Shown here piece after piece: positions 1,954-14,641 of a stretch of DNA of 14,641 nt. The notes below the pieces were generated by a model that worked only from the letters and a program-made list of their open reading frames with translations, did no database searches and was not told the origin of the DNA. The stretch is from a virus, in UHGV virus genome UHGV-0127656. One strand, 5' to 3'. The position numbers were made by a program, and so were the translations under genes. Position 1 is the stretch's first letter, and each line of letters opens with the position of its first letter.

Positions 1954-2325
1954 TTACGCTGCATACCCGTTAGCTGAAACCCAGTTTACGGTCTGTTCTT
2001 TGGCCTGGTCGAGTGTCAAAAATTCACCAATATATTGAGATATGCCTCTCAAAGCATCGATGAACTCCATTTGTGATGATTTAGTAAATGCACCACTAAG
2101 GAAGTCAGCAACAATTTTAGGCGTTTCTTGTGCCGCCGGTTGCACTTCCTCTTCTTGCTGTTGTGCTGGATTATTCGATGAACCAAGCCCCAGCTTCATC
2201 ATCACTTCAACTATCCGCACGCCAATAGTGACACGTTGTACCGCAGTCGCGCTTTTTTGCGCTGACATCAGCTCAGACAGTTCTTTGCCTAAGCTAAGGC
2301 GCTCCGTTACTGATATTTTCACCAC
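1954..2325 (-). CDS. Small 123 aa protein, last gene of the operon; DdrA-like by position and size
   Basis: GTG start (2325 or 2322) overlapping the stop of the upstream 650 aa gene, AAGGGGG Shine-Dalgarno-like element upstream, terminator immediately downstream. Assignment is by synteny only. Confidence 0.45.
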   Translation of the reverse strand: MVKISVTERLSLGKELSELMSAQKSATAVQRVTIGVRIVEVMMKLGLGSSNNPAQQQEEEVQPAAQETPKIVADFLSGAFTKSSQMEFIDALRGISQYIGEFLTLDQAKEQTVNWVSANGYAA

Positions 2326-4271
2326 ACGCCCCCTTGTTGTATCTCTGCCAGAATGTTGATCAGGTGATCGGCTGCCGCACCAACAAGTGACTCGTTCTCA
2401 TCATATCGACCTGCGTTGATAAGAACATTAGCTGCCTCCTGAATGCGATCAAACTCCGCTCTAATCACCGTCAAATCACGGGACGTAAACTGCAACGGCA
2501 CGGATTTCAGATATTCCAGCGCACTGTCCGCCTCCTGATCAGCCTCACTAACTACTGGCCCATCTGAACCTGTATCAGACTCTTGGGGGGATTCAGGTTC
2601 AGACTCAGGTTCTGGTTCTTGTACTGCTTCCGGTGCCTGATCTAATGTCTGTTCAGCTTCGACTACTTCTGATTGATTCTGAAGCGCGTCATAGATATCC
2701 ATTATAAAAAGGTTCTCCCCATCTCCAAGTGGATAAGCGACGTTAGGAAATGCTTTGCGGAAGAGGATTTTTATCTGCGCCTTAAAGGTTTTCAAGTCGC
2801 TTCTAAACAGATCAACATAGCCATCAATATGGTTCGACATACTGGACGCAACCAATTCGCCTGCAATCTCTTTCAATTCATCGTCACCAGGGAGATATAG
2901 CAACTCGTACTGACTGACTTCTTCGTCTGTCAGTTTGCGGTCATACGTAATGATTCCGTGACGAGCATATTCGTAATACGGATCAGCCTGATCAGGACGG
3001 TCAAGTACAGCTTTATTTCCTTCAGGAACCGCACCAACACCCGCCGGGCGAGATTGGAGCGCATAGCGATATTTACCAACCTCCAGGGGATCAGGATGTG
3101 ATGCTGGTTGTGGCTCCTGTTCAGGCTGCGGCTGATCAGTTGGCTCAGGCTGGCCCGGCAACACATCCACTTTGTATTGATCAGCATTATGTTCACGATA
3201 GGCTTTAAGTAATTTGGTTGCAGCGTCCGCTGAACTCCCACCTTTAACAGCACTGACATCAATACTGAAATTGCCTTCTGGTGCCTCAATCGTGACAAAG
3301 CTATCACTGCCTGACGTGACATACTTAACTACAGCACCATTATCCAGCGTTGTTTGGCCTTCTGTAGCAAGATTATGTTTTATGTGTCGCAGTTGATCAT
3401 TGAAGGCACGCTCTTTAGTTCCTTGGCTCTTAGCTGACAATAAATTATCGCGTTTAGCCTGCAATTCCGCGTTAAGGGCTTTTTGTGCGTCTAATTTATT
3501 CTGCATATCATTGAGTGTTGAGCGTTTCTCTGCCAGCCCCCGCTGTGCGTCTTCAACCTGCTCAATCAGCACAGAACGTTCTTCTGCCAGCTTGTCGGCT
3601 TCATTGAGATACCCCTCAATATCAGCCTTCATTTTGTCCTGGCGCTCCTTTGCTTTTTTGAATTTTGCACTGTTACGCTCAATGAGGTTAGAAAGCGCCT
3701 GACACACCTGGCTCAGAGATACATCACGCCCACCGATTGGCGCAACAACATGCGTAACGTTTCTTTTGTTAAGAAGAAACTGAAACGCAACCAGCTCGTC
3801 ATCCCCTTTAATTCTTGTGCCGTCTGCGGTTGGAGAATGGAAAATTATGCTTGTCGTTTGTCCATCGGTTAGAGGTATTTGTGCTGTTACAACAGGGATA
3901 TTAGCAACCCGGCGCACGCGCCCAATGATTGCCCCACCGATACTATTACGTCCGTCTTCATATTCACCTGCCTCATCCGTACCCGCAGCAATGTCAGTGC
4001 CATTCAGGCCGCGATTAAGCGCCCGGACAAATGCTCGCATTGTTTGCGCTAACCGCAATTTTGTTGTGGTTATGGCTTCGAACATTGCCTCATTGGTAGT
4101 TACCAAAATTTCGTTGCCCATATAGGCCAGCTCGATATCTTCCAGCGTCGCAGGCTCGATAAGTAAATCATCCTCGGTGATATCTTCCGCCACCCAACGA
4201 TTAGGCGTATATCCAGTGAGCGTATCTGCAAAAGTGGACTGGATATTTATTCGAATAGGTTTCTTTATCAT
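2319..4271 (-). CDS. darA: 650 aa multi-domain protein: N-domain, coiled coil, beta-rich middle, Pro/Gln-rich and Pro/Glu-rich acidic linkers, C-terminal helical domain; DarA-like (P1 antirestriction / head-associated protein) by architecture
   Basis: ATGA start/stop overlap with the upstream 205 aa gene. Size close to what I recall for P1 DarA. A segment of it appears similar to the upstream 205 aa protein, matching the P1 description of Hdf as 'homolog of DarA fragment'. Not verified by search. Confidence 0.5.
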   Translation of the reverse strand: MIKKPIRINIQSTFADTLTGYTPNRWVAEDITEDDLLIEPATLEDIELAYMGNEILVTTNEAMFEAITTTKLRLAQTMRAFVRALNRGLNGTDIAAGTDEAGEYEDGRNSIGGAIIGRVRRVANIPVVTAQIPLTDGQTTSIIFHSPTADGTRIKGDDELVAFQFLLNKRNVTHVVAPIGGRDVSLSQVCQALSNLIERNSAKFKKAKERQDKMKADIEGYLNEADKLAEERSVLIEQVEDAQRGLAEKRSTLNDMQNKLDAQKALNAELQAKRDNLLSAKSQGTKERAFNDQLRHIKHNLATEGQTTLDNGAVVKYVTSGSDSFVTIEAPEGNFSIDVSAVKGGSSADAATKLLKAYREHNADQYKVDVLPGQPEPTDQPQPEQEPQPASHPDPLEVGKYRYALQSRPAGVGAVPEGNKAVLDRPDQADPYYEYARHGIITYDRKLTDEEVSQYELLYLPGDDELKEIAGELVASSMSNHIDGYVDLFRSDLKTFKAQIKILFRKAFPNVAYPLGDGENLFIMDIYDALQNQSEVVEAEQTLDQAPEAVQEPEPESEPESPQESDTGSDGPVVSEADQEADSALEYLKSVPLQFTSRDLTVIRAEFDRIQEAANVLINAGRYDENESLVGAAADHLINILAEIQQGGVW

Positions 4272-4885
4272 GCATCTTCCTCCAGGCGCGCTATTTCTTC
4301 TTTCAATACGCGAGTTTTCGCCAGTTCCTGCGCCATCTCGGTTCTAATGATTTCAGTTTCTCTTGTTGCGCGGTCTGAATTACCTTGCACCTGATTTAAT
4401 TTTTCTTTGGCCCTTTCAATATCCTCGCGGATCGCATCGCGAGATTCCTTTGCCTCTGCTAGTTTCTGCGCATTGGACTTAACGCCTTTTATTTTCTTAT
4501 TCCCATCATCAATATCTTTCGCCGCACGAGCTAACTTACGCGCCAATGATTTCTGAAATGATGATGCGCCTTTATTAAATAAAGCAGCCAGTGATTGCCC
4601 TAAAGCCATCAGCGTTTTAACTGGCTTGAAAGGAACAATTTTTCCGTTCAGTTTTACACCAGAAATATCACCAGTATCATTAACCTGAACGTCCATCGTC
4701 TGCTCATCGATTCCGATAAGGGTAAACGTGCGCGTCATGATCCCGTCTTTCTTCCTGCCATTACTGGCGGGGATCACCCTCGCTATCTTGTAGCCTCCTT
4801 TACCGATTTCTTTGACGAGTTTTGCCAGCCCCTTTTCGTTTAACTCATCATAATTAAGAAGAACATAATTAGACTTATTTGACAT
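4268..4885 (-). CDS. hdf: About 205 aa protein with N-terminal beta-rich domain and C-terminal coiled coil; Hdf-like. Start is probably the Met at 4885 rather than the ORF-track start at 4909
   Basis: AAGGAG sits 6 nt upstream of the ATG at 4885 (the ORF-track Met at 4909 has no comparable site). Region 'IARVIPASNGRKKDG...ALGQSLAALFNKGASSFQK' resembles DarA-like 'RVANIPVVTAQIPLTDG...SLSQVCQALSNLIERNSAKFKK'. Confidence 0.5.
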   Translation of the reverse strand: MSNKSNYVLLNYDELNEKGLAKLVKEIGKGGYKIARVIPASNGRKKDGIMTRTFTLIGIDEQTMDVQVNDTGDISGVKLNGKIVPFKPVKTLMALGQSLAALFNKGASSFQKSLARKLARAAKDIDDGNKKIKGVKSNAQKLAEAKESRDAIREDIERAKEKLNQVQGNSDRATRETEIIRTEMAQELAKTRVLKEEIARLEEDA

Positions 4886-5321
4886 TCCAGTCTCCTTCAC
4901 ACTTTTCAATCATAAACTGACGTTCTATGCAGTCATTGATAGGGAAAATGCGATAAAGCGGATTCAGGCGGCAATTACCGTTAGTCAATGTGACCTTTAG
5001 ATCCCACTTCGCTGGCTCAAGATATTTCGTGTCGATGAGCAAATATTCTTCTCTCTCACCGCGTTTTGACGCGTCAACTGGTCTGGTTTTCCCCGAAATA
5101 ACCACAGATGGATTTTTCAAGTCCTGCAACCAATATTCGATTTGTGCATTGCTTACCCAGCTTCGTTTAACGCGAAGCGACACAGGAAACGCTATAGCAG
5201 ACTCTTTCACTACAGCTTCGCCAATGCTCAAAATATCAACACTCTTGCGACGAAATAAGAAACGGTCAATAACGGCAACAAATGCCATGATAAAAATGAA
5301 ATAATTTCCAAAGTCACCCAT
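4875..5321 (-). CDS. 148 aa protein with one N-terminal transmembrane segment (YFIFIMAFVAVIDRFLF); LydB-like by position and size (holin antagonist in P1)
   Basis: Start ATG overlaps the stop of the upstream holin-like gene by 1 nt, with AGGTGGAG upstream. Overlaps the next gene at its 3' end. No lysozyme catalytic motif seen. Confidence 0.45.
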   Translation of the reverse strand: MGDFGNYFIFIMAFVAVIDRFLFRRKSVDILSIGEAVVKESAIAFPVSLRVKRSWVSNAQIEYWLQDLKNPSVVISGKTRPVDASKRGEREEYLLIDTKYLEPAKWDLKVTLTNGNCRLNPLYRIFPINDCIERQFMIEKCEGDWNVK

Positions 5322-5647
5322 TACTTCTCTCCACCTTTTCCCCCACTCGCTATTACGCTTAAGAGATTCAAGACGTTACTAGCTCTGGACTTCAAGCCCT
5401 GTAAAATTTCACTTCCGTTGTTACTGGCAATCAGAACAACGCAGTAAATGATGCCTTCCGGCCATTCATAGCTATCAGCCACCCAAAACCCCGCAAGCCC
5501 GGCAGTTACCGCAGTAAACAATTCACTCGCGAGGTTGAGCAGTGACGCAGAAATGCGCCCGTCTCTAACTCCGAGAAGGAATACGCCGGTTCCACTCAGC
5601 AGGGATGTTATGACTGCTACAGCCAGATTTTCATAATCTGCAAACAT
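5321..5647 (-). CDS. 108 aa small membrane protein with three predicted transmembrane helices and a charged C-terminal tail; class I holin-like (LydA-like by position)
   Basis: Hydrophobic stretches 'LAVAVITSLLSGTGVFLLGV', 'LLNLASELFTAVTAGLAGFWVA', 'GIIYCVVLIASNN' and C-terminal 'SGGKGGEK'. GGAGGGG upstream of the ATG; first gene of the operon. Confidence 0.5.
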   Translation of the reverse strand: MFADYENLAVAVITSLLSGTGVFLLGVRDGRISASLLNLASELFTAVTAGLAGFWVADSYEWPEGIIYCVVLIASNNGSEILQGLKSRASNVLNLLSVIASGGKGGEK

Positions 5648-5729
5648 ACCCCTCCAGAAATGACGTTTAACGCGGCTTCAACTTATCCAGTTTGTTATTT
5701 CCCGACTAAATGCCATTCACACAAAATGG

Positions 5730-5948
5730 ATGCATATGATGGCCCGGTGGTCCGTAAACCTCGTCACTCAGAGCGTGGAGGATGCCAAATTCGCGTATCA
5801 ACAAAATGGTCCAAACACGGCTTTAAAGAGAAATACGCTTGAATGCGCAAGATGTGAGCTGATTCTTGAGGACAAAATGATGACATGTGAGTCTTCACAA
5901 GCGTCATTCAGTGAATATAATGCCCCCCTCTCAGATACCACTAACTGA
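5730..5948 (+). CDS. Possible small plus-strand ORF (72 aa) divergent from the operon and ending 13 nt before a strong terminator; product unknown
   Basis: ORF stop at 5946-5948 followed by the hairpin/T-tract at 5962-5993. No convincing ribosome binding site or recognisable domain; an overlapping 60 aa frame (5660-5842) is an alternative. Confidence 0.2.
   Translation: MHMMARWSVNLVTQSVEDAKFAYQQNGPNTALKRNTLECARCELILEDKMMTCESSQASFSEYNAPLSDTTN
5894..5921 (+). promoter_or_regulatory. Candidate sigma70-type promoter: -35 TTCACA (5894-5899), 16 nt spacer, -10 TATAAT (5916-5921)
   Basis: Hexamers read directly from sequence. Perfect -10, 5/6 match to TTGACA at -35; lies about 40 nt upstream of the terminator at 5962-5993. 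Confidence 0.3.
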
Positions 5949-5961
5949 GTGTTCATTTTGC

Positions 5962-5993
5962 CCGCCGTCATTGACTGGACGGCGGCTTTTTTG
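5962..5993 (+). terminator. Rho-independent terminator on the plus strand
   Basis: 8 bp GC-rich stem ccgccgtc/gacggcgg (5962-5969 / 5978-5985), 8 nt loop, followed by cTTTTTTg (5986-5993). Confidence 0.6.
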
Positions 5994-6042
5994 TACCAAA
6001 GGATTGTATTACTAAAAAAGGTCACAAAAGCACTCACTAATA

Positions 6043-6065
6043 AAGCCCTCAACAAAAGAGGGCTT
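6043..6065 (-). terminator. Stem-loop downstream of the tail fiber assembly gene; weak terminator candidate for the tail operon
   Basis: 8 bp stem aagccctc/gagggctt with 7 nt loop. Only a short TATT follows on the minus strand, so termination efficiency is doubtful. Confidence 0.3.
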
Positions 6066-6107
6066 GAAATATCAAAAAAGCAGTGCTGATTGGATTGTTA
6101 TGATTGT

Positions 6108-6530
6108 TTATGCAGGCATCTCAGGCCATGAGATATCTGCATCAACAGAAGTGTCAACTCTATTAAGAAGAACTCTATACCTCTTTAACTTTGTCAACAT
6201 TTCTATTTCCTCATCAGTGGCAATATCCATATCAACAGCATCCTGAAGCGTTGATATTTTTATGCTCACATCATTCATAAGACTACTTTTGGTGTTTTCA
6301 GCAATGCTGACTCTATCCTCTAAGCTCATAGGTTGTGGGTCAGATAACATTGGATAACCATCGCCATTTGCAATTATTATTTTCCCATTGCCATACCCTG
6401 ATAACAATTCATCATATAAGTCATCAGGTATATGTACAGCATCGGACGGCCATGAACCGTTTTTATCGTAATCTTCTTTTAGTCTATCGTCGTAGAAACC
6501 ACCAGTATCTTTGCTGTAATACTTTGCCAT
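6108..6530 (-). CDS. Tail fiber assembly protein (Tfa/gpG/U family chaperone)
   Basis: 140 aa protein immediately downstream of the tail fiber gene. C-terminal 'KLKRYRVLLNRVDTS...WPEMP' matches the conserved Tfa motif as I recall it. ATG with GAAGG upstream. Confidence 0.85.
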   Translation of the reverse strand: MAKYYSKDTGGFYDDRLKEDYDKNGSWPSDAVHIPDDLYDELLSGYGNGKIIIANGDGYPMLSDPQPMSLEDRVSIAENTKSSLMNDVSIKISTLQDAVDMDIATDEEIEMLTKLKRYRVLLNRVDTSVDADISWPEMPA

Positions 6531-6561
6531 TTAAAAGCCTTCATTCTAATTAACTATATTT

Positions 6562-9069
6562 TTAATACCCATAAGCAACATACTGTGCATATACTTTATC
6601 AGTAGAGCTACTTTTTACTGTAAAACCAGTGGCTGAGTTGTTGTATGTATAAAGAATTGCATTAACAGCATTCCCGCTATTAGGTGAAATCACAACTACC
6701 GCACACGCCTCAGGAAAAGCAGTCGGAAATTTAACTACGCTTCCTGGAGTAACAGCCGCTATAATCCCCCACTGCATCATCACCTTAGTTGATGTATCCT
6801 TATGCCATCCATGAATGTTGGCATATGCTGTGTTTTTAGCCTGATATTTCGTGTTGAAATTACTATAGTTACCAGGGGTAATCTGACCAGCGGCAGATAA
6901 ATTCCCCATAACCCTTACATGACCATCAGCACGTCCTAATTCTACGCGACCATCACCGCCATCTATCTTTAATGGAGTGTAAACGACATCACCATTAACA
7001 TTTTGCCCAGTGGTTGATATCTGGAAACTATATCCAGTATTAGTTATTAGGAATCCATAGTTATTATTATAAGTTAGGCGTATAGCATTTTGGCTGCTGG
7101 ATATAATTTCACCGGTAACAGTACCACCTGTTGTTGGTAACGCACCAACATGACTTGCCGTTAATGTGATATCTGCAGAACCATCAAACTTAACACCGTT
7201 GATTGTGCGGGCTGTTTGCAGTTTTGTAGCGGTTGCAGCATTACCTGTTGTGTTCTGGTTACCGGCAATGTTCACACCCGGCAGGTCGATATTGGCGGTG
7301 CCATCAAATGCCACCCCGCCGATCGTTCGGGCCATCTTGAGCTTTGTGGCAGTATCTGCGTTTCCCGTCAAATTACCTGTAATGCCACCACTAACTGTTA
7401 CCCCATTACCGATGGACACCAACCCGGTTCTTAAATTTATAGCAAAAGGTCTTAATGGGCCGATGTCACCATTTTCTCCCTCACCTTCATTTGTCGGGAT
7501 AAGATGAAGATATTCCTCGGATCTCCTGAAGATAAGGCCAAAGTCCTGGTTAAATATTCGAAGGGCATTTATTGTGCCAATTTTTAGCTGCCCCCCCATT
7601 GTGTCGCCAGAACGCTGAACTGCGTTACCAGCTTGAGAAGCAATATCCGTTAAGCCAAGATCTTCAGGGGTCAGAGTAATATCTGCCGACCCATCAAATG
7701 CCACACCGTTAATCTTTCTGGCTGTTTTTAATTTCGTCGCAGTATCGGCGTTCCCGGTCAGCGTACCAGTGATCCCCGCGCTGAAAGTCTGGCGTGCACT
7801 CCAGGTATTAGCTGTGCTCAACAGGGGGAGCTTTTCTCCGCTGGTTCCGAGTTCTCTTAAACCAAGGTATTGGATAACAGCCAGTGTGCTTGTTTTAGCA
7901 AGAATATCGCGACCGACTGACGTTAAATCAGTCTGGGCTACAGTGTCTGTTCCGGTAAAGTACGGTAATTTATTTGCCCCCGTCGCCAGGTCAGCGAGCG
8001 CGGTTAAGGTTGCGTCGAGAGGCTGCTTACCTGCCAGGGCATTTGTCATTGTAGCCGCAAAGTTCGGGTCATTGCCCAGCGCCGCAGCAAGCTCATTAAG
8101 AGTATCAAGAGCTTCTGGTGATGAGCCGACCAATGCAGAAATAGCGGCACGAACATAAGCGGTTGTTGCAATCTGAGTGTTGTTCGTACCTTGTGACGCT
8201 GTAGGCGCTGTTGGCACCCCTGTAAATGCCGGGCTTAATAACGGTGCTTTAAGAGCTAAAGCAGCATTAATCGTCTGGCTAAACTGAGGATCATTGTTAA
8301 TTGCATCTGCAATTTTTTTCAGCGTATCCAACGCTGAAGGAGAACCATCAATAAGGGCGGTTATTGCGGCCTGAACAAAGGCAGTGTTTGCGATTTGTGT
8401 ACTGTTTGTACCTTGTTCCGGAGTTGGAGATTTAGGTATACCAATAAACTCCGGGCTATCAACCGGAGCTTTTAGTTTGTTTAACGTGCTGATAGCAAGA
8501 GGTGTTGCGGCTTTATATTCTTCGTCACTATCCAAAGCACTGGAAAACTCAACACCAACAGCACGATTAGCACGATATTCAGTGCTAATCATATCTGCGG
8601 TAACGGCTTGAGCATTGTCAGGCACGATCACGCGGCATAGCTCAATCTGGTTAGATGCTATTTCCTCATCAACGAGAGCAATAATTCTCGCTGCGCTAAT
8701 ATCCGATGAGCTATCTACCTGGCTGGTTTTCACTCCATGTTCGTAATTAGCTTCAAGAACGATGATTGTCGTTACACCAGCTTCTACAGGAACAAGAACA
8801 TCACTGACTTGCTGCACGGATATCTGACATTTACCCACGTCAATTGAAGCCGCCCCTCTTCCCTCTGTTTTCTCGGATGTAATACGCACAAACAGACCAT
8901 CCCCTGGCACCGGTTCAAACCCACAGTACACTCCGGGCAGAACGATATTTTTCATCTTCCTGTTTAGAGCTTCGGTGCTATACAGCTCAAAGTATTGCAT
9001 GTCTGCAATTAGTGGAGCGGAAATGTCCGAAGATAAGGTGACAATATTCTTTACTTTATCTGCGCACAT
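6562..9069 (-). CDS. Tail fiber protein (835 aa) with a central region resembling the P2 gpH / P1 S / Mu S / lambda Stf family and a distinct C-terminal receptor-binding domain
   Basis: Segments such as 'SPAFTGVPTAPTASQGTNNTQIATTAYV...SSPEALDTLNELAAALGNDPNFAATMTNALAGKQPLDATLTAL...LPYFTGTD...LTSVGRDILAK' closely resemble P2 gpH as I recall it. Also carries repeated 'TGNADTATKLKTAR.INGV.FDGSADITL' units. ATG with GAGGGA upstream. Confidence 0.9.
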   Translation of the reverse strand: MCADKVKNIVTLSSDISAPLIADMQYFELYSTEALNRKMKNIVLPGVYCGFEPVPGDGLFVRITSEKTEGRGAASIDVGKCQISVQQVSDVLVPVEAGVTTIIVLEANYEHGVKTSQVDSSSDISAARIIALVDEEIASNQIELCRVIVPDNAQAVTADMISTEYRANRAVGVEFSSALDSDEEYKAATPLAISTLNKLKAPVDSPEFIGIPKSPTPEQGTNSTQIANTAFVQAAITALIDGSPSALDTLKKIADAINNDPQFSQTINAALALKAPLLSPAFTGVPTAPTASQGTNNTQIATTAYVRAAISALVGSSPEALDTLNELAAALGNDPNFAATMTNALAGKQPLDATLTALADLATGANKLPYFTGTDTVAQTDLTSVGRDILAKTSTLAVIQYLGLRELGTSGEKLPLLSTANTWSARQTFSAGITGTLTGNADTATKLKTARKINGVAFDGSADITLTPEDLGLTDIASQAGNAVQRSGDTMGGQLKIGTINALRIFNQDFGLIFRRSEEYLHLIPTNEGEGENGDIGPLRPFAINLRTGLVSIGNGVTVSGGITGNLTGNADTATKLKMARTIGGVAFDGTANIDLPGVNIAGNQNTTGNAATATKLQTARTINGVKFDGSADITLTASHVGALPTTGGTVTGEIISSSQNAIRLTYNNNYGFLITNTGYSFQISTTGQNVNGDVVYTPLKIDGGDGRVELGRADGHVRVMGNLSAAGQITPGNYSNFNTKYQAKNTAYANIHGWHKDTSTKVMMQWGIIAAVTPGSVVKFPTAFPEACAVVVISPNSGNAVNAILYTYNNSATGFTVKSSSTDKVYAQYVAYGY
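7159..7779 (-). repeat. Three copies of a ~110 bp coding repeat inside the tail fiber gene (7159-7269, 7279-7389, 7669-7779)
   Basis: Encode 'TGN(A/-)DTATKL(K/Q)(T/M)AR.I.GV.FDG.A.I.L' at about aa 431-467, 561-597 and 601-637. Confidence 0.7.
8059..8481 (-). repeat. Two tandem degenerate ~200 bp coding repeats inside the tail fiber gene (8059-8259 and 8281-8481)
   Basis: Encode paired units 'LKAP..SP.F.G.P.(A/S)PT...GTN.TQIA.TA(F/Y)V.AAI.AL...SP.ALDTL...A.A..NDP.F' at about aa 197-263 and 271-337. The DNA-level similarity is visible by eye. Confidence 0.7.
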
Positions 9070-9071
9070 AA

Positions 9072-9518
9072 TTATCCCTCGACCTGTTCAATGGTCATGA
9101 GCAAGCTGTATCGCTTACCTTTGAATAAGGTGTCCTGTTGAGTACAAACAACCCCAAAAGCCTGATCCTCTGCATCTACGAGAACCAGCGTATTGAAATC
9201 GTAAGGTGTATCGTCCGGCATCGTTTCTTGTGGAAAAGCGGCATTAATCGTAATGACACCATCGAGGCTGGAAAGAATGAGATTGGATTCAGCAAAATGC
9301 TGTGCATCACTTAACTTGAAGTCGAGCGGAATATCAGAAATAGTCCAGCCACCAGCACTATTTACCGTCACAAGATCGGACTTGCACCAATAAGCCTTTG
9401 TCATAACAAAACGCTCACCCCTGCCGATTGCAGACTCTGCACGGCGAGAGTAGTAGTAAGAAAGGAGTTGCGCCTTGTAAATACTTGAATCGCTTTGGGA
9501 TTTTAAAGTTTCAGCCAT
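9072..9518 (-). CDS. 148 aa protein immediately upstream of the tail fiber; probable tail/baseplate structural or fiber-attachment protein
   Basis: Tightly packed with the tail fiber gene (stop 3 nt before the fiber start). No recognisable motif; assignment by position only. Confidence 0.45.
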   Translation of the reverse strand: MAETLKSQSDSSIYKAQLLSYYYSRRAESAIGRGERFVMTKAYWCKSDLVTVNSAGGWTISDIPLDFKLSDAQHFAESNLILSSLDGVITINAAFPQETMPDDTPYDFNTLVLVDAEDQAFGVVCTQQDTLFKGKRYSLLMTIEQVEG

Positions 9519-9603
9519 ACGAACATAGCCCCTTTAACAAGCAATAAATCGAAGGGCAGTATGTTCAGTTTGTGATTTCCAGTGGTCTTTTGTTTTGAGA
9601 AAT

Positions 9604-9634: not shown

Positions 9635-10477
9635 CTAAGGTGCAAAATTATAATCCAGCGCCCAGGCGTCGAGCGGGAGTTCATCGAGATGAAGCACTCT
9701 TTCCGTCGTCCGGTCTGGCCTTCCTGCGAACTGGATGCCGTCTAATTGAATGATCGTATCGCTAATAGATAGTTCATCGACCATCTCTTGCGTCGTGTAC
9801 ACCCCCTCAATAAAGGACACTTCCGCAGATAAGCAATTCAGGATCTCCGCCATTTCCGGCAATGTTGCGCTCAACTGGAAAGAAACACCATCAAACACGA
9901 TATGCAATGGCAATAGCGGCGCTATAACCGTATCAAAATCAGCAAGTAGCTTCTGTACAGCAACGTCTCTGTCATCGCTATCATAAGCTCGATACAGCTT
10001 ATTTTGGTTGACGACAACCAGCCCTCTGGATGTCAGGAAAAACTCACCATATTGTGCCTGAGCAGTCGGTATTTCATTTGCAGTCGCGAAGAATGAACCA
10101 TAGGGATGTTTTTCTGTATCGACAGGCGCATACAAAGGTTCCCATGAGACGGGGATTGTGCCAAATTCACGCCAGAACGTTTGCTCTATCGGCCTTACTG
10201 TTCCTTTGAAGTGCACCTCATCCAGTCGTTGAGCTAATAGCATTGGCCTGCGTGTTTTGTCCGTTTCTGTGATAACAAAGAAACGACCATATTCAGCAAT
10301 GCGAGTGTCCATATCCTCGCTTGCCATTGTGAAAAACGATTTACGGTTGCTTATTCGCGTGAGAATAGGTTCAACCGATTCATTCCACACGTCCTGAATC
10401 GTATCAACAAAGGTGGCCCACAATTTAGAATCCTGTTTAAATTGCGTCAGACGCTCTTTTAGCCAGTTATTCTGCAT
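9635..10477 (-). CDS. 280 aa tail/baseplate protein in the position of P2 gpI-type baseplate wedge proteins
   Basis: Follows the baseplate J-like gene with a 9 nt gap, inside an otherwise canonical W-J-I-fiber order. Sequence similarity to gpI is not clear by eye. Confidence 0.5.
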   Translation of the reverse strand: MQNNWLKERLTQFKQDSKLWATFVDTIQDVWNESVEPILTRISNRKSFFTMASEDMDTRIAEYGRFFVITETDKTRRPMLLAQRLDEVHFKGTVRPIEQTFWREFGTIPVSWEPLYAPVDTEKHPYGSFFATANEIPTAQAQYGEFFLTSRGLVVVNQNKLYRAYDSDDRDVAVQKLLADFDTVIAPLLPLHIVFDGVSFQLSATLPEMAEILNCLSAEVSFIEGVYTTQEMVDELSISDTIIQLDGIQFAGRPDRTTERVLHLDELPLDAWALDYNFAP

Positions 10478-10486
10478 TGTGACCTC

Positions 10487-11917
10487 TTACGGATAGGTTA
10501 TGCTGAACGTTGATGATTCCACGTCCAGATAAACAAAATCATTAAAGTACACTGCTTCTTTCATGTTCTGCGTAGCCACGTCATAAGACAGGAACATATC
10601 CAGCGATTCGATTACTCGCCAGATATCTTTTACTTTGACCTGTGCATAACATTGCTGTGAGTCGTCATCACTCTGCAATAGCTGGTTAAATGACATGGAG
10701 TCTTTACCGAAGTTCTCCTCCAGTGCCGCTTTAATTGCAGTTAGCGCGTCATCCACCAGCACACTCTTTTTTACGATACCGGTAAATTTGATGTTGAACG
10801 GCTGTTCATTGGTGGCGACGTATTCGAACTTCTTATTCAGCTCATTAGGGATACTCTCAAGGGCTGATAATATCTCTGTTTTCAGAGCTTCCTGTGTTAC
10901 GCCGGGCTTATGCCCACAAAAGAAAATTTTGTTGATATTACGCACATCAAAGCCCGTTATTTTCTCCTGTAGCGCCTCCCCCCACACGTTAAGCCATGAC
11001 GTGCCACTGACCACGTTCTGAATGAACTGGCGGTAATCACCGCCCCAAACAACCTGCTCATCGTAGGCCACATAATACTGCGCCCTGTTTCGGGTTTCCT
11101 CGGTAGTTTCCATGCCACCACCGCCAGAAATGATCGAATCGGTTTTTACTTCCAGTGATTCGACATACCCGGAGATGTTCCCTGCTGGTTCAAGTTTCTG
11201 GCCTTCAGCCAGCGTGTAATCACCGAGGCTTGCCATAATGTCAATGCGTACCTGACTCCCTGCCGCTGGCATCATCCCCATTGATCCATCACCGAAGCGC
11301 ACGCCGATCTGTTCTGTCGGCTTATAAACCAACACATAATGTTTACTGTTATCCCTGGACATGCGGAACAGGGGGTTATGTGTCCATTTTTCCTCGACAC
11401 CATTAGTTATCACGACAACTTCCAGGCTGGCGACTTCTGCTGTTAACTCACGGGAAAGTAACAGCGTCAAGAATGGTGTTTCTTGCACCACGTCGAACGT
11501 TACGCTGACTGCTTCATGCTGTTTTACTTCTATGCCGGGTACTGTTTCACCAGCAGGGATAACAACACTACTGCTGGTTGCAATTGGTGTCTGGTCACTT
11601 GTCAGTAATTCAGCCCCTCCGGGTAGAGTAATATCCCTGTCGGTTTTGTTGGTGATGGAAACAGTGCCGTATGACGCATCGACCAAACGACCGACATAGC
11701 CACGGTCTTCCGCTGCCGCGAGAATACTTGCTCTACGCGTCGCGGTGGAAATGAATCCTTCTGTAAGTGCACGGCTTGCAAATGTACGCGCAATATAAAC
11801 AATCTGCGCGCCCAAAACGGACTGCATTTGAATAAACTGGCTGTTTACAAATCGCGCCCACCAGGGGTTTTCGTTCAGCTTGGCATTAAACTTGTCCAGT
11901 AATTCGGTAATACTCAC
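10487..11917 (-). CDS. Baseplate J-like protein (476 aa)
   Basis: Size and position between a gp25/W-like gene and tail fiber genes. GTG start overlapping the stop of the W-like gene (GTGA). Confidence 0.65.
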   Translation of the reverse strand: MSITELLDKFNAKLNENPWWARFVNSQFIQMQSVLGAQIVYIARTFASRALTEGFISTATRRASILAAAEDRGYVGRLVDASYGTVSITNKTDRDITLPGGAELLTSDQTPIATSSSVVIPAGETVPGIEVKQHEAVSVTFDVVQETPFLTLLLSRELTAEVASLEVVVITNGVEEKWTHNPLFRMSRDNSKHYVLVYKPTEQIGVRFGDGSMGMMPAAGSQVRIDIMASLGDYTLAEGQKLEPAGNISGYVESLEVKTDSIISGGGGMETTEETRNRAQYYVAYDEQVVWGGDYRQFIQNVVSGTSWLNVWGEALQEKITGFDVRNINKIFFCGHKPGVTQEALKTEILSALESIPNELNKKFEYVATNEQPFNIKFTGIVKKSVLVDDALTAIKAALEENFGKDSMSFNQLLQSDDDSQQCYAQVKVKDIWRVIESLDMFLSYDVATQNMKEAVYFNDFVYLDVESSTFSITYP

Positions 11918-12288
11918 GCTGTATCTCCGCTATCTTTCTGCATAACAACATTCACGGTGCCTCCTTTTGCCTGGAAGCTAATTAGTAACTGGTCTTCAGA
12001 GACAGTCGCGCAGCGGATCGCCTGGAGTCCAAGCCCTGGTAAGTCCTGCTGTAGCTTCGTCATCATTCGCGCTTCAATCGCCACTTCAACAATGTGTGAC
12101 GTATCAGAACCGAAGGGTTCGTGTTTGAACTCCTCCATCGGATTCCCCCATGACGGCAATCCGTAAACGCTGCCATTTGGTGTCCGTAGCCATTCATCGA
12201 GTCGGGCTATCCAGGCGTTTGTGTCGCCTTCAGCGATCACCACCCCGCTCTCGTTTGTCTGAAGGCGGGCATCAATCTCATAAAGCAT
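11914..12288 (-). CDS. Baseplate wedge protein, GPW/gp25-like (124 aa)
   Basis: Small protein immediately upstream of the baseplate J-like gene; start 5 nt after the stop of the large upstream ORF. Assigned by size and synteny. Confidence 0.55.
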   Translation of the reverse strand: MLYEIDARLQTNESGVVIAEGDTNAWIARLDEWLRTPNGSVYGLPSWGNPMEEFKHEPFGSDTSHIVEVAIEARMMTKLQQDLPGLGLQAIRCATVSEDQLLISFQAKGGTVNVVMQKDSGDTA

Positions 12289-12293
12289 CGGTC

Positions 12294-14641
12294 TTAATCC
12301 TCCAGTAATTTGTCAAGAGATGGGTCATTGATAGTCGTGCTGGCACGCTGACGAGGTTGTGGTTGTGATGTGTTCACAACTTTGTCCTGATCGCCTTTTC
12401 GGTTGTCTTTGCTTACGCCAAGAATCTCTTTGAGAACGGAATAAACGTTCTCCAGTGCTTTCAACATAGCCGGATCGTTATTTGCGGTATCTGTTGTTAG
12501 CATCTGCCTTATTCCGCTTCGTGCGAGGTCCGTGACGATTGGTAGCTGCGGAGGCATTGCAAGGAACGGTTCTTTAGCAGCCACGCCCGAAGCAAACAGG
12601 CTTTGATTGATTGCGCCAGTTGTGTCCCTGATCGTATCCGCCGTTTTCTGTATGCCACCATTCAGCCAACCGCCAACACTCCTTGTTAACGGACTAATAG
12701 CGCGAGCAACATCGGTATTCTGTCCAGAGGACTGCAATACAAAGTCATTTAACATTCCGGTGCTATCAATACCGCCCACAAGTCGCGAGAGGTTATCTCC
12801 AACGGCGGGGAGGACGGCGGAGCCTACCTGGTTAAGCCCTGACACAGTTGAATCAAATAGCGAGCCAAAGAAGCCCCTGTCCTCACCTTCAACCACCTTG
12901 TAGCCGTTGTCGTACATCTGCACACCCGCCGGTGTCGATGTGGCACGCTTCTCGCTGATGGTTGCCGGACTCTCCGGAAGCAGGCCAATGGTTTCTGTAT
13001 CGCGGTTAACGTTGCGCTTTTGCTGTATAGCCGTAGTGATATCGGCGATCTGTTCCGCCTTCTGGAAACTAAAGTTTTTGCCCGTTGCTCTGGATATTTT
13101 TTCAACAAGAAACTTATCCAATTGCTTGGCTTTTGCTGCTAACGAGGACATCTCTTCCGGAGAACTGACAGGGCCGAGATTTAGCCCCATATTGGGATCT
13201 CCCCCAACTATCCCGGCGATGACGCCCCCAACACCGTCTGCACTCATTAACCGCTCCGTCAATCCGGCTGCGGCGGAAGAATTGCCACTAGCTTTCGCGT
13301 GGCTGATCGCCTGGGCATTTTCCTGTTGAGCTGCCTTCGGTTTTTTAGCTGCCTGTGCGTGTTGAACCACGTCAGTAGGGCTAGGCATTACAGCCTGGGC
13401 TACGCTTGACGCAGGAATAGCAGAAGATGAGCCGTTGGCGTATTTGACTTTGCTACCGACACTATATTGGGAGTTGCGAGCGATTAGAGGACCGCCCTTT
13501 TCCTTCTGGATTTTATTAATGTGTTCCAGCGTTTCATCATTGAATTGCCCTTCCCAACGCCCAGTTTTAGCGTTGAATGAACCAAGAGCTGTTTTGATGA
13601 AATTGTTGTTAACCGCCGGGTTACCCCCCTCCTTCGTCGCAATGGCGCGAACAAGGTGCGTCATAACTTCAGGGTTGCTAACGTCTATTTTATCGTTGGG
13701 GGATACCCCGAGATATTTGCTGACGTTTTCAATGTACTGATTGGTGTTGTTCTCTGTTGGTGGTGCCCATTTTGAAATGATGCTGGATACTGTTTGCAGC
13801 TTCTGATACCCGGCGGCAGCACTTGTACCGTTGTAATAACTCGATACCTGGTTTGCCAATGCCCGAATCCCTTCTTCGGGCGTATTAAACCGCGCAAAAC
13901 GCTGTTCGCCTTTCGCGTTCGGCGCTTCCAGTACCGCCCCCTCCTGATTTGCAAAAACCAGGTTCCCCAGGTTGTTATTCCGGTAATTCCTGTTCTTGGC
14001 GTTGCTTCCGCCTATATTCAGATCAGCCGTTATTGTATTTTTTTCAGGCGCTTTAAATTCGTCTGGCGATTTGTAGCCGTGTTCACCCACGCCATCCTCA
14101 CCTCTGCGCCCGCCCTGTAGCTGTCGGGCCAGATCATTAATTGCGGCTACCGTTTGCTTGGTGCCATCTTCAACGGCTTTCTTAACCTGCGCAGTGCCTT
14201 CGCTGCTTGATGAGAACGATTCTTTTAGGCTGCTGAATGCGTTCTTCGACGCGTCGATAGAACTATTTATGCCGCGAGCGATATTGCTGGTATCAAGACT
14301 CTGAAGTTTTTGTCCGACACCTTCAAAGCCTAGCGCGGACATCCCCTCGCCAATGAGGTTAGCCGCTCCCGTCACCAGACCGCCCATATCCAGGACGTTA
14401 GCAGCGGCGTAGGCGCTCTTTTGCTGTGTTGTAACGTCCTGCCCTTCCTTCAGGTTATAAGTCGCCCTCTGCGCTTCTGTGTCGCTGTAGCCGTCTACGG
14501 CATCATAACCAACCATAGCCACCTGGCCGATGACTGGAATCGCCCTGAATCCGGCCCTTGCGGCAACACCTCCGGCAGCTTTGAGAGCCACTTTTCCAGC
14601 TTCTTTTTTCGCGATGTTTTCACCAGTGGCACCGGCAACCT
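12294..14641 (-). CDS. Large tail protein, 5'-partial (C-terminal ~780 codons in window; tape-measure / injection-protein-like position)
   Basis: Frame is open from the stop at 12294 to the right window edge (the ORF-track start at 14591 is GTG and codons 14592-14639 contain no stop). Gly/Ser/Asn-rich, with a segment 'NNLGNLVFANQEGAVLEAPNAKGEQRFARFNTPEEGIRALANQV' that looks like a conserved globular domain. Sits directly upstream of the baseplate genes. Confidence 0.65.
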   Translation of the reverse strand, partial: VAGATGENIAKKEAGKVALKAAGGVAARAGFRAIPVIGQVAMVGYDAVDGYSDTEAQRATYNLKEGQDVTTQQKSAYAAANVLDMGGLVTGAANLIGEGMSALGFEGVGQKLQSLDTSNIARGINSSIDASKNAFSSLKESFSSSSEGTAQVKKAVEDGTKQTVAAINDLARQLQGGRRGEDGVGEHGYKSPDEFKAPEKNTITADLNIGGSNAKNRNYRNNNLGNLVFANQEGAVLEAPNAKGEQRFARFNTPEEGIRALANQVSSYYNGTSAAAGYQKLQTVSSIISKWAPPTENNTNQYIENVSKYLGVSPNDKIDVSNPEVMTHLVRAIATKEGGNPAVNNNFIKTALGSFNAKTGRWEGQFNDETLEHINKIQKEKGGPLIARNSQYSVGSKVKYANGSSSAIPASSVAQAVMPSPTDVVQHAQAAKKPKAAQQENAQAISHAKASGNSSAAAGLTERLMSADGVGGVIAGIVGGDPNMGLNLGPVSSPEEMSSLAAKAKQLDKFLVEKISRATGKNFSFQKAEQIADITTAIQQKRNVNRDTETIGLLPESPATISEKRATSTPAGVQMYDNGYKVVEGEDRGFFGSLFDSTVSGLNQVGSAVLPAVGDNLSRLVGGIDSTGMLNDFVLQSSGQNTDVARAISPLTRSVGGWLNGGIQKTADTIRDTTGAINQSLFASGVAAKEPFLAMPPQLPIVTDLARSGIRQMLTTDTANNDPAMLKALENVYSVLKEILGVSKDNRKGDQDKVVNTSQPQPRQRASTTINDPSLDKLLED

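Follow-up and report, generated by a model that had tools for sequence, protein, structure and literature searches.

A 460-bp gap in a D6-like phage-plasmid as the probable scar of a deleted tail-fibre inversion switch

Gene content of the window

The window, by which we mean the whole 14,641-nt stretch of the viral genome UHGV-0127656 that was analysed, carries all of its real genes on the minus strand, as judged from the ORF list and from Pfam and PHROG searches. From right to left, in the direction of transcription, it contains the following genes and one sizeable gap:

12294–14591, minus strand: tail-injection transglycosylase (sit-like)
11914–12288, minus strand: unknown gene
10487–11917, minus strand: baseplate protein
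9635–10477, minus strand: gene-16/tube-like protein
9072–9518, minus strand: R
6562–9069, minus strand: S tail fibre, an intact 835-aa ORF (PHROG 454)
6108–6530, minus strand: U tail-fibre assembly chaperone, 140 aa, sole copy (Pfam Caudo_TAP, E 2e-34; PHROG 188)
5648–6107: 460-bp gap between U and lydA
5321–5647, minus strand: lydA-type holin, with which the lysis/antirestriction (P1 darA-type) operon opens (PHROG 1527, E 1e-38)
4875–5321, minus strand: lydB
4268–4909, minus strand: hdf
2319–4271, minus strand: darA
further downstream of darA, minus strand: ddrA- and ddrB-like genes

Against the Pfam family LydA-holin, the lydA ORF gave a weak match that fell below the cutoff. The gene order matches that of phage P1, which runs ddrB, ddrA, darA, hdf, lydB, lydA, (lydC), cin, Sv', U', U, S, R and is also given in PMC10695390. 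By nucleotide sequence the nearest phage is D6, with 92% identity over lydB–lydA, and the nearest records are non-mobilizable E. coli plasmids of about 90 kb, i.e., D6-like plasmid prophages. On this sequence evidence, the source of the window is a D6-like (P1-related) plasmid prophage.

The boundaries that the initial annotation gave for the gap are exact, as lydA starts at 5647 on the minus strand and the stop codon of U occupies 6108–6110. The gap does divide, as proposed there, the R-S-U fibre operon from the lydA-lydB-hdf-darA-ddrA-ddrB operon.

Switch remnants in the gap and in S

In D6, the interval between lydA and U holds cin (187 aa), cixL, S' and U'; the arrangement in P1 is alike, though annotated more richly. 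We partitioned the gap of the window by alignment with D6, pEC361_3, CP159120 and other relatives. Together with a site inside S, this gave the following features:

5703–5738, plus strand: degenerate cin upstream region with the cin start codon ATG at 5736–5738 (DNA alignment with cin of pEC361_3, CP159120 and D6)
5739–5786, plus strand: 48-nt filler in place of cin codons 2–5 (alignment gap against three cin genes)
5787–5880, plus strand: cin pseudogene relic, codons 6–35 (cin nt 16–106; tblastn and DNA alignment)
5881–5890, plus strand: final 10 nt of a deleted U', with the stop TGA at 5888–5890 (alignment with the U' 3' end of CP159120 and contig L017)
7855–7874, plus strand: cixR crossover site inside S, without a partner (20/20 identical to the annotated cixR of D6 and P1)

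The initial annotation stated that no invertase lies near the fibre genes, and no serine invertase is in fact encoded anywhere in the 14.6-kb window. When D6 Cin was compared with the window by tblastn, the sole match was a 24-residue relic at 5805–5876 (17/24 identical, E 3e-6). The statement that only one fibre end and one assembly gene are present also holds. There is no second copy of either, the plus-strand ORFs are all of 140 aa or less, and neither the ORF list nor Pfam nor PHROG revealed a plus-strand fibre or Caudo_TAP ORF (Sv'/U') in the window.

In comparison with the P1/D6 switch, the locus lacks some 80% of cin, the whole of cixL, Sv', and U' except for 10 nt. It has no intact invertase (~185–190 aa, with a resolvase domain and an HTH), a single crossover site and no alternative cassette. 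Since most of the switch is gone, inversion is impossible.

What is left of cin is clearly recognizable. The relic is 87% identical in nucleotide sequence to nt 16–106 of the pEC361_3 cin, and 5792–5875 aligns with nt 19–101 of P1 cin at 82% identity, a stretch in which the P1 recombinational enhancer is annotated (cin nt 19–90). It can still be read as IRVST, including the codon of the catalytic serine; afterwards the frame shifts and then reads NGPNTALKRNTLECARCELILEDK. The frameshift is caused by a 1-nt insertion in the A-run at 5803–5806. The CP104667 and L010 alleles do not have this insertion, which suggests that the cin stub decays stepwise. Additionally, the cin Shine-Dalgarno sequence, AAGGGGAGG in the relatives, is mutated to AAAATGGATG here.

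For the 48-nt filler, blastn against all complete E. coli genomes gave full-length, high-identity matches only in plasmids that share the gap structure of the window; the remaining E. coli matches listed were short and weak (E 0.1–0.3). From 5881 onwards, the gap corresponds to the U' 3' end and the U'-U spacer of CP159120, L017 and L012, with the spacer extending to 6107. At the junction 5880/5881 (AAAATGA/TGACATG), possible microhomology, as read off the alignments, amounts to only about 3 nt (TGA).

Two small plus-strand ORFs lie across these remnants, one of 60 aa at 5660–5842 and the other of 72 aa at 5730–5948 (ORF list). The initial annotation had listed them among the contents of the gap. 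They are present mechanically, but they are not genes, because their frames and lengths change between alleles. Over seven alleles, we found lengths of 60/72 aa here, 95/31 aa in CP104667 and L010, and 60/71, 60/82 and 60/103 aa in the others. The 72-aa ORF is composed of the filler, cin codons 11–35 and a stretch that reads through the U' stop region. In the sister plasmids, the gap carries no PGAP annotation.

The sequence of cixR, TCTTAAACCAAGGTATTGGA, has one exact match in the window, whereas none is expected from shuffles. No second cix-like site was found at up to 3 mismatches in the window or at up to 4 in the whole sister plasmid LR890273 (92.8 kb; 100% identical over the gap). A further Cin homologue is absent from LR890273, in which a tyrosine recombinase is the sole recombinase annotated. 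An invertase beside the fibre genes elsewhere, which would have contradicted the initial annotation, is therefore found neither in the window nor in that plasmid.

The fibre gene itself changes character at the crossover site. Residues 1 to ~466 of S align closely with D6 S (near-identically from ~290), and the similarity then collapses just past cixR. This is the pattern expected if S consists of a constant part, Sc (9069 to ~7875), joined to a locked and cassette-specific variable part, Sv (~7855 to 6562). U, which is low in GC, shares 31% amino-acid identity with D6 U and 99.3% nucleotide identity with U of L012, a contig with an intact switch; neither P1 nor D6 has a related Sv-U cassette. 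When the spacer, U and the Sv end were searched against a phage database at the nucleotide level, the only matches were to generic fibre repeats (7130–7300). Tandem Repeats Finder reported nothing in S; repeats are nevertheless evident at the protein level.

The initial annotation proposed a search for remnants of recombinase genes or crossover sites, and such a search proved positive: stubs of cin and U' turned up, as did an orphan cixR. Their presence suggests that the locus once had a P1-type switch and then lost it. Thus, rather than being a switch region that replaces the invertible segment, as had been supposed, the gap appears to be a deletion scar made up of the cin stub, the U' stub and the old U'-U spacer. 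We regard it as highly probable that the 460 bp are what remains of a deleted P1/D6-type tail-fibre inversion switch and that the fibre type is locked.

The same scar junction was detected in 15 of 5426 complete E. coli genomes, on plasmids in every case, and also in 2 IMG/VR contigs and 5 metagenome contigs. About 80 other plasmids match the lydA side only, and those examined (D6, pEC361_3) have cin beside lydA. The scar type therefore makes up ~0.3% of complete E. coli genomes and about one sixth of the plasmids with this lydA region. Its alleles share the junction and are 93–100% identical to one another, with spacers that fall into two groups, one of them of the CP159120 type. A common junction combined with diverged alleles points to one old event followed by divergence and recombination.

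Two relatives have kept a switch. Metagenome contig PPYF01506980 (L012) has a full switch, with lydA, an intact cin of the pEC361 type, cixL ATCCCAAACCTTGGTTTA, Sv' (207 aa) and U' (156 aa). Beyond U' it continues with the same spacer (87% identical), the U mentioned above and an S with cixR. In CP159120 (E. coli 10034292-3), a 67-codon cin stub with an intact start is accompanied by a second invertase, which is encoded on the opposite strand and shares 61% identity with Cin. A cixL-like site, Sv', U', the spacer and U are present too, and 438-nt inverted repeats flank the segment.

Both share with the window the lydA upstream region, the U'-U spacer (including both hairpins and the promoter-like site), cixR and a U that is 94–99% identical at the nucleotide level. 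They differ from it in having retained Sv', U', the left crossover site and an invertase, that is, a working-looking switch. These arrangements suggest that the U cassette of the window normally resides inside an invertible segment.

Transcription signals in the gap

The gap contains elements that may start or end transcripts, on both strands:

5648–5702, minus strand: lydA leader (Shine-Dalgarno GGAGGGG) and D6-type late-promoter-like element, unchanged in CP159120 and pEC361_3 and also conserved in D6
5702–5686, minus strand: box GGAAATAACAAACTGGA upstream of lydA, followed by the -10-like TAAGTT at 5685–5680
5894–5921, plus strand: sigma70-like promoter TTCACA-N16-TATAAT in the old U'-U spacer, directed towards U (11/12 positions matched)
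5962–5992, plus strand: intrinsic terminator, an 8-bp GC stem followed by CTTTTTT (terminator scan; -16.4 kcal/mol, z -2.6)
6043–6065, minus strand: hairpin AAGCCCTC-N7-GAGGGCTT with a weak U-tract UUUAUUAGUG (-14.4 kcal/mol, z -2.8; z -4.3 on the plus strand)

The block upstream of lydA loses its homology to D6 exactly at 5702. The 17-nt motif GGAAATnACAAACTGnA occurs exactly twice in the window, at 5702–5686 before lydA and at 9580–9564 before R, where it abuts a CATACT hexamer. D6 holds it at both the lydA and the R site, with 1 mismatch each. In the sister plasmid there are 7 sites at up to 2 mismatches, as compared with 0.25 in shuffles, and at two further sites of this plasmid ORFs annotated as portal and tail protein start just downstream.

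We define the D6-type late motif, which comes from the present analysis and is not a curated family, as GGAAATnACAAACTGnA abutting a -10-like hexamer 30–50 nt before a start codon. Its recurrence in the window, D6 and the sister plasmid is our reason to take 5702–5680 (minus strand) as a candidate D6-type late promoter of the lydA-lydB-hdf-darA operon. The supposition that the gap holds the promoter of the downstream operon thus gains a concrete site, a late-type motif common to the upstream region of R, for which a promoter role is inferred.

The late promoters LPdar and LPs of P1 offer a comparison. They consist of the box AAGTTACTT, the same in both, followed by N4 and a -10 of TACCAT (LPdar) or TACAAT (LPs). 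The element described here resembles them in lying 30–45 nt before lydA and R, in having a conserved box that abuts a -10-like hexamer and in having no -35. It differs in the sequence of the box, which is GGAAATnACAAACTGnA instead of the experimentally defined P1 box AAGTTACTT. The P1 box occurs in the window at chance level and not at all in 5648–6107 at up to 2 mismatches. The gap does not contain the arrangement of a P1-type Lpa-dependent late promoter, namely a 9-bp palindromic -22 box, 4 nt and a TANNNT -10.

Two shorter candidates were discarded along the way. The palindrome AACT-N5-AGTT (5680–5692), considered as an Lpa-type site, occurs once, with a 19% chance expectation, and was replaced by the longer motif. 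The sequence ACAAACTG taken alone has 9 sites plasmid-wide as compared with 3 expected, mostly outside a promoter context; only the extended 17-nt motif is significant.

The two hairpins reported in the gap are both present, at 5962–5985 and 6043–6065. The first, on the plus strand with a T-run reaching 5992, has every element of a Rho-independent terminator and is located downstream of U' in CP159120 and L012. This suggests that 5962–5992 was the terminator of the lost Sv'-U' arm, and that it persists either as a relic or to end a short plus-strand transcript.

The second hairpin lies 42 nt past the stop of U and is invariant among the spacer alleles, whereas its flanks differ at a few positions. 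Read on the minus strand (6065–6043), it has a good stem and a weak U-tract, and the weakness of its T-run explains why the consensus scan missed it. It is likely the terminator of the R-S-U fibre operon. Taken together, the two spacer hairpins are, on their sequence and position, the putative convergent terminators of the former U' and U arms.

The possible promoter of the initial annotation exists as a site, at 5894–5921. It faces the plus strand, though, the wrong way for lydA, and so it cannot serve that gene. It is the best sigma70-like match in the window; when the gap was shuffled, 1.4% of the shuffles attained its score. No spacer allele, those of the switch-bearing relatives included, departs from it in either hexamer. 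Scanning the contigs for the promoter-like 28-mer gave no matches.

Could the U'-U spacer be a small transcription unit of its own, one that survived the deletion? It would produce a small RNA of ~65 nt, starting near 5928 and ending at 5962–5992. A canonical terminator does stand 40 nt after a promoter match of 11/12 positions that is the best in the window and rare in shuffles of the gap. Most of 5930–5992 is conserved in all spacer alleles, including those with an intact switch, while 5993–6042 is ~69% identical (window versus L012, hand count). Furthermore, the predicted 71-nt RNA folds with z -3.0, and the spacer is ~220 bp long here as compared with 28 bp in P1 and D6.

Other observations speak against such a unit. 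The terminator is already accounted for as that of U', and at the scale of the window the consensus match has a 27% chance expectation, being reached in that share of whole-window shuffles (one match per 14.6 kb). A search of 5300–6600 against Rfam at permissive thresholds returned nothing in the gap. The target search yielded only self-complementarity and chance 11–13-mers, with no complementary plasmid target above chance, and the spacer alleles vary too little for covariation.

We therefore consider an independent unit of this kind unlikely. The more specific proposal that the ~220-bp spacer is a small gene for a predicted ~65-nt RNA of the 3'-UTR-derived type, sharing the U' terminator, seems to us quite doubtful. 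If it were true, the spacer RNA would have outlasted the inversion switch and could influence the host or the expression of fibre or lysis genes. The same Rfam search gave a sub-threshold hit to IS009 (35.6 bits, gathering threshold 117) and one to DUF805b inside U, and both were treated as chance.

Origin of the gap and its meaning

The features above fit a simple history. The ancestor would have had the order lydA, cin, cixL, Sv', U', spacer, U, Sv, cixR, Sc, with lydA flanking the switch. A single deletion, illegitimate and not site-specific, would then have run from cin codon 35 (nt ~106) to the last 10 nt of U', so that most of cin was lost together with cixL, Sv' and U'. U and the Sc-Sv fusion would thereby have been locked permanently in the expressed orientation, because no recombinase and only a single crossover site were left.

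Later, the cin stub would have decayed by losing its Shine-Dalgarno sequence, gaining the 48-nt filler and acquiring the 1-nt frameshift. The 460 bp would now serve as intergenic DNA only. In this capacity, hairpin 6043–6065 would end the R-S-U transcript, with 5962–5985 as a possible backup, and the late-type promoter at 5702–5680 (minus strand) would start the lydA-lydB-hdf-darA operon. The make-up of the gap, the homologies, the orphan cixR and the occurrence of the scar in relatives are seen directly in the sequences; we infer the single step, the direction of the change and the promoter and terminator functions.

None of the sampled relatives is a direct ancestor. In L012, the spacer is only 87% identical and U' stops ~75 nt short of the homologous point, and CP159120 has a different cin stub and a second invertase. 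A history of several events (two or more), or one of cassette exchange and subsequent deletion, would therefore fit as well. One deletion is the simplest history and, on the alignments, the most likely one, though not the only one.

A different agent might have removed the switch, namely Cin itself, through a deletion at cix or quasi-cix sites, or an insertion sequence. Recombination by Cin at quasi-cix sites is known to occur at a low rate. For P1-like plasmids, cases are on record in which an IS removed cin and the C segment (PMC6906374, PMC6799933), and the 48-nt filler might be the debris of an earlier insertion. The junction 5880/5881, however, has no cix-like core, and a second cix-like site was not found; moreover, we saw neither an IS end nor a remnant of a transposase, and the filler search gave no significant match. 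Neither end of the deletion is cix-like, cixR is untouched, and cix sites are inverted rather than direct, all of which argues against a deletion mediated by Cin. We consider both agents very unlikely in comparison with illegitimate recombination.

It is hardly credible that the gap is ancestral, so that the lineage never had a Cin switch and the gap is ordinary intergenic DNA with accessory genes of 60–72 aa. The ORFs can indeed be read off mechanically, and the blank PGAP annotation of the sister plasmids would agree with plain intergenic DNA. Against this stand the cin stub, the U' stub and the exact orphan cixR (20/20, 0 expected), the shifting frames and lengths of the ORFs between alleles, and the relatives in which the same U accompanies a full switch.

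Finally, invertible segments whose flanking inverted repeats reach several hundred bp (438 nt in CP159120) are easily misassembled, but a collapse by the assembler would not join a frameshifted cin stub to a U' end, and the junction recurs with diverged alleles in 15 independent complete genomes and 7 contigs, which shows that it is neither an artefact nor a one-off, so we give this explanation practically no weight.

Loss by illegitimate deletion thus being the preferred reading, the locus can be set beside known systems. With the Cin/C-segment switch of P1 and D6 it still has in common the two flanks, lydA and U-S-R, as well as an identical 20-bp cixR in S and cin codons 6–35. Truncated cin or a missing C segment is known in the P1-like phage-plasmids pSvP1, pTZ20_1P and pJIE250-3 (Venturini et al. 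2019, PMC6906374). Like the window, these have a partial invertase ORF and no complete C segment, and host-range switching has presumably been lost.

The differences lie in the background. The three plasmids have P1/P7-type backbones, their losses are mostly IS-mediated, and often structural genes have been removed and the prophages left defective. In the window, by contrast, the backbone is of the D6 type and the loss is IS-free; it does not reach beyond the switch and has spared S and U. A D6-like plasmid of Salmonella has undergone a 15-kb IS26-mediated loss that includes the fibre region (PMC6799933). Unlike in the reported losses of P1-like and D6-like elements, the set of virion genes in the lineage of the window is apparently complete. 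Decay of this kind is known in P1-like elements; the locus adds one more example and no new mechanism.

Nothing here challenges current understanding, and the main value of the finding lies in correct annotation. The sister RefSeq records that we examined lack annotations for the cin pseudogene stub, the U' stub and the orphan cixR; all three should be marked, and the small ORFs of the gap should not be called as genes.

It is worth adding that the locus offers a clean natural example of how an inversion switch decays, with fibre cassettes swapped and stacked scars left behind. With a single fibre type, the sub-lineage presumably does without the host-range alternation that P1, D6 and Mu keep. 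Such locking of the fibre would matter if D6-like phage-plasmids were considered as gene-transfer vehicles or as an engineering chassis.

Promoter-like elements of the window

The minus-strand genes lydA (holin) and R are each preceded by a 17-nt motif with an abutting -10-like hexamer. The promoter-like features of the window are as follows:

5702-5680, minus strand: GGAAATnACAAACTGnA motif and hexamer, upstream of lydA
9580-9558, minus strand: GGAAATnACAAACTGnA motif and hexamer, upstream of R
1911-1896, minus strand: weaker site of the GGAAATnACAAACTGnA motif
5894-5992, plus strand: sigma70-like promoter TTCACA-16-TATAAT, then a terminator

In the sister plasmid LR890273, sites of the motif were found at positions 2172, 7052, 13211, 63221, 67463 and 76161, and ORFs annotated as portal and tail proteins begin directly 3′ of such sites. 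With up to 2 mismatches allowed, this plasmid carries 7 sites, as compared with 0.25 in shuffled sequences. The motif looks like the D6-type counterpart of the Lpa-dependent late promoters of P1, although the P1 box (AAGTTACTT) is unlike it. In another part of its backbone (31380-32408), LR890273 (record NZ_LR890273.1) additionally carries five clustered tRNA genes (Arg, Tyr, Thr, Ser and Ile) and a gene of the Thoeris anti-defence Tad2 family.

The plus-strand promoter is the top-scoring sigma70-like promoter of the window, with a canonical terminator 40 nt downstream. Both elements are kept in every allele of the U′-U spacer (the part of the gap 3′ of the U′ stub), intact-switch relatives included. 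The pair is a possible source of an RNA of about 65 nt; the candidate had no Rfam match in a search over 5300-6600, and a target search on the plasmid turned up none.

Fibre tip and chaperone

The GC content falls to 36-41% across approximately 6000-7050 (the spacer and the chaperone gene U, together with the distal end of the variable part, Sv, of fibre gene S), as compared with 45-55% elsewhere. U shares only 31% identity with its D6 counterpart, and its closest relatives in the phage database come from APSE phages of Hamiltonella (~45% at the amino acid level). Together, these features suggest that the fibre-tip and chaperone cassette was acquired horizontally. A sub-threshold Rfam match to IS009 within the U coding sequence (6145-6322, minus strand; 35.6 bits, E 2.6e-6, gathering score 117) is probably due to chance or composition.

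S itself encodes 835 aa in the window; its product reaches 1169 aa in both LR890273 and CP085065, and 1089 aa in the metagenome contig PPYF01506980.1. From the window version, some 330 aa are missing between the repeated TGNA(A/D)TATKL...FDGS modules of the Sv part (6562-7855), an in-frame, repeat-mediated length change within the variable part of the fibre.

Invertase and U′ modules of relatives

In the related E. coli plasmid, the invertase module has been replaced, not lost:

NZ_CP159120.1, 2126-3147: cin stub and second invertase

Here, a 67-codon cin stub adjoins a complete invertase on the opposite strand, 61% identical to Cin; the plasmid further has a cixL-like site (GCAAAAACCTTGGTTTAAGA) as well as inverted repeats of 438 nt.

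The metagenome contig, whose switch is intact, holds at approximately 7058-7135 a non-coding relic of a CP159120-type U′ 3′ end (AAGACAAAACGCTGACACACGG), located 3′ of its own U′ stop. This relic is a second, older scar, which shows that U′ cassettes were swapped while the spacer was retained.
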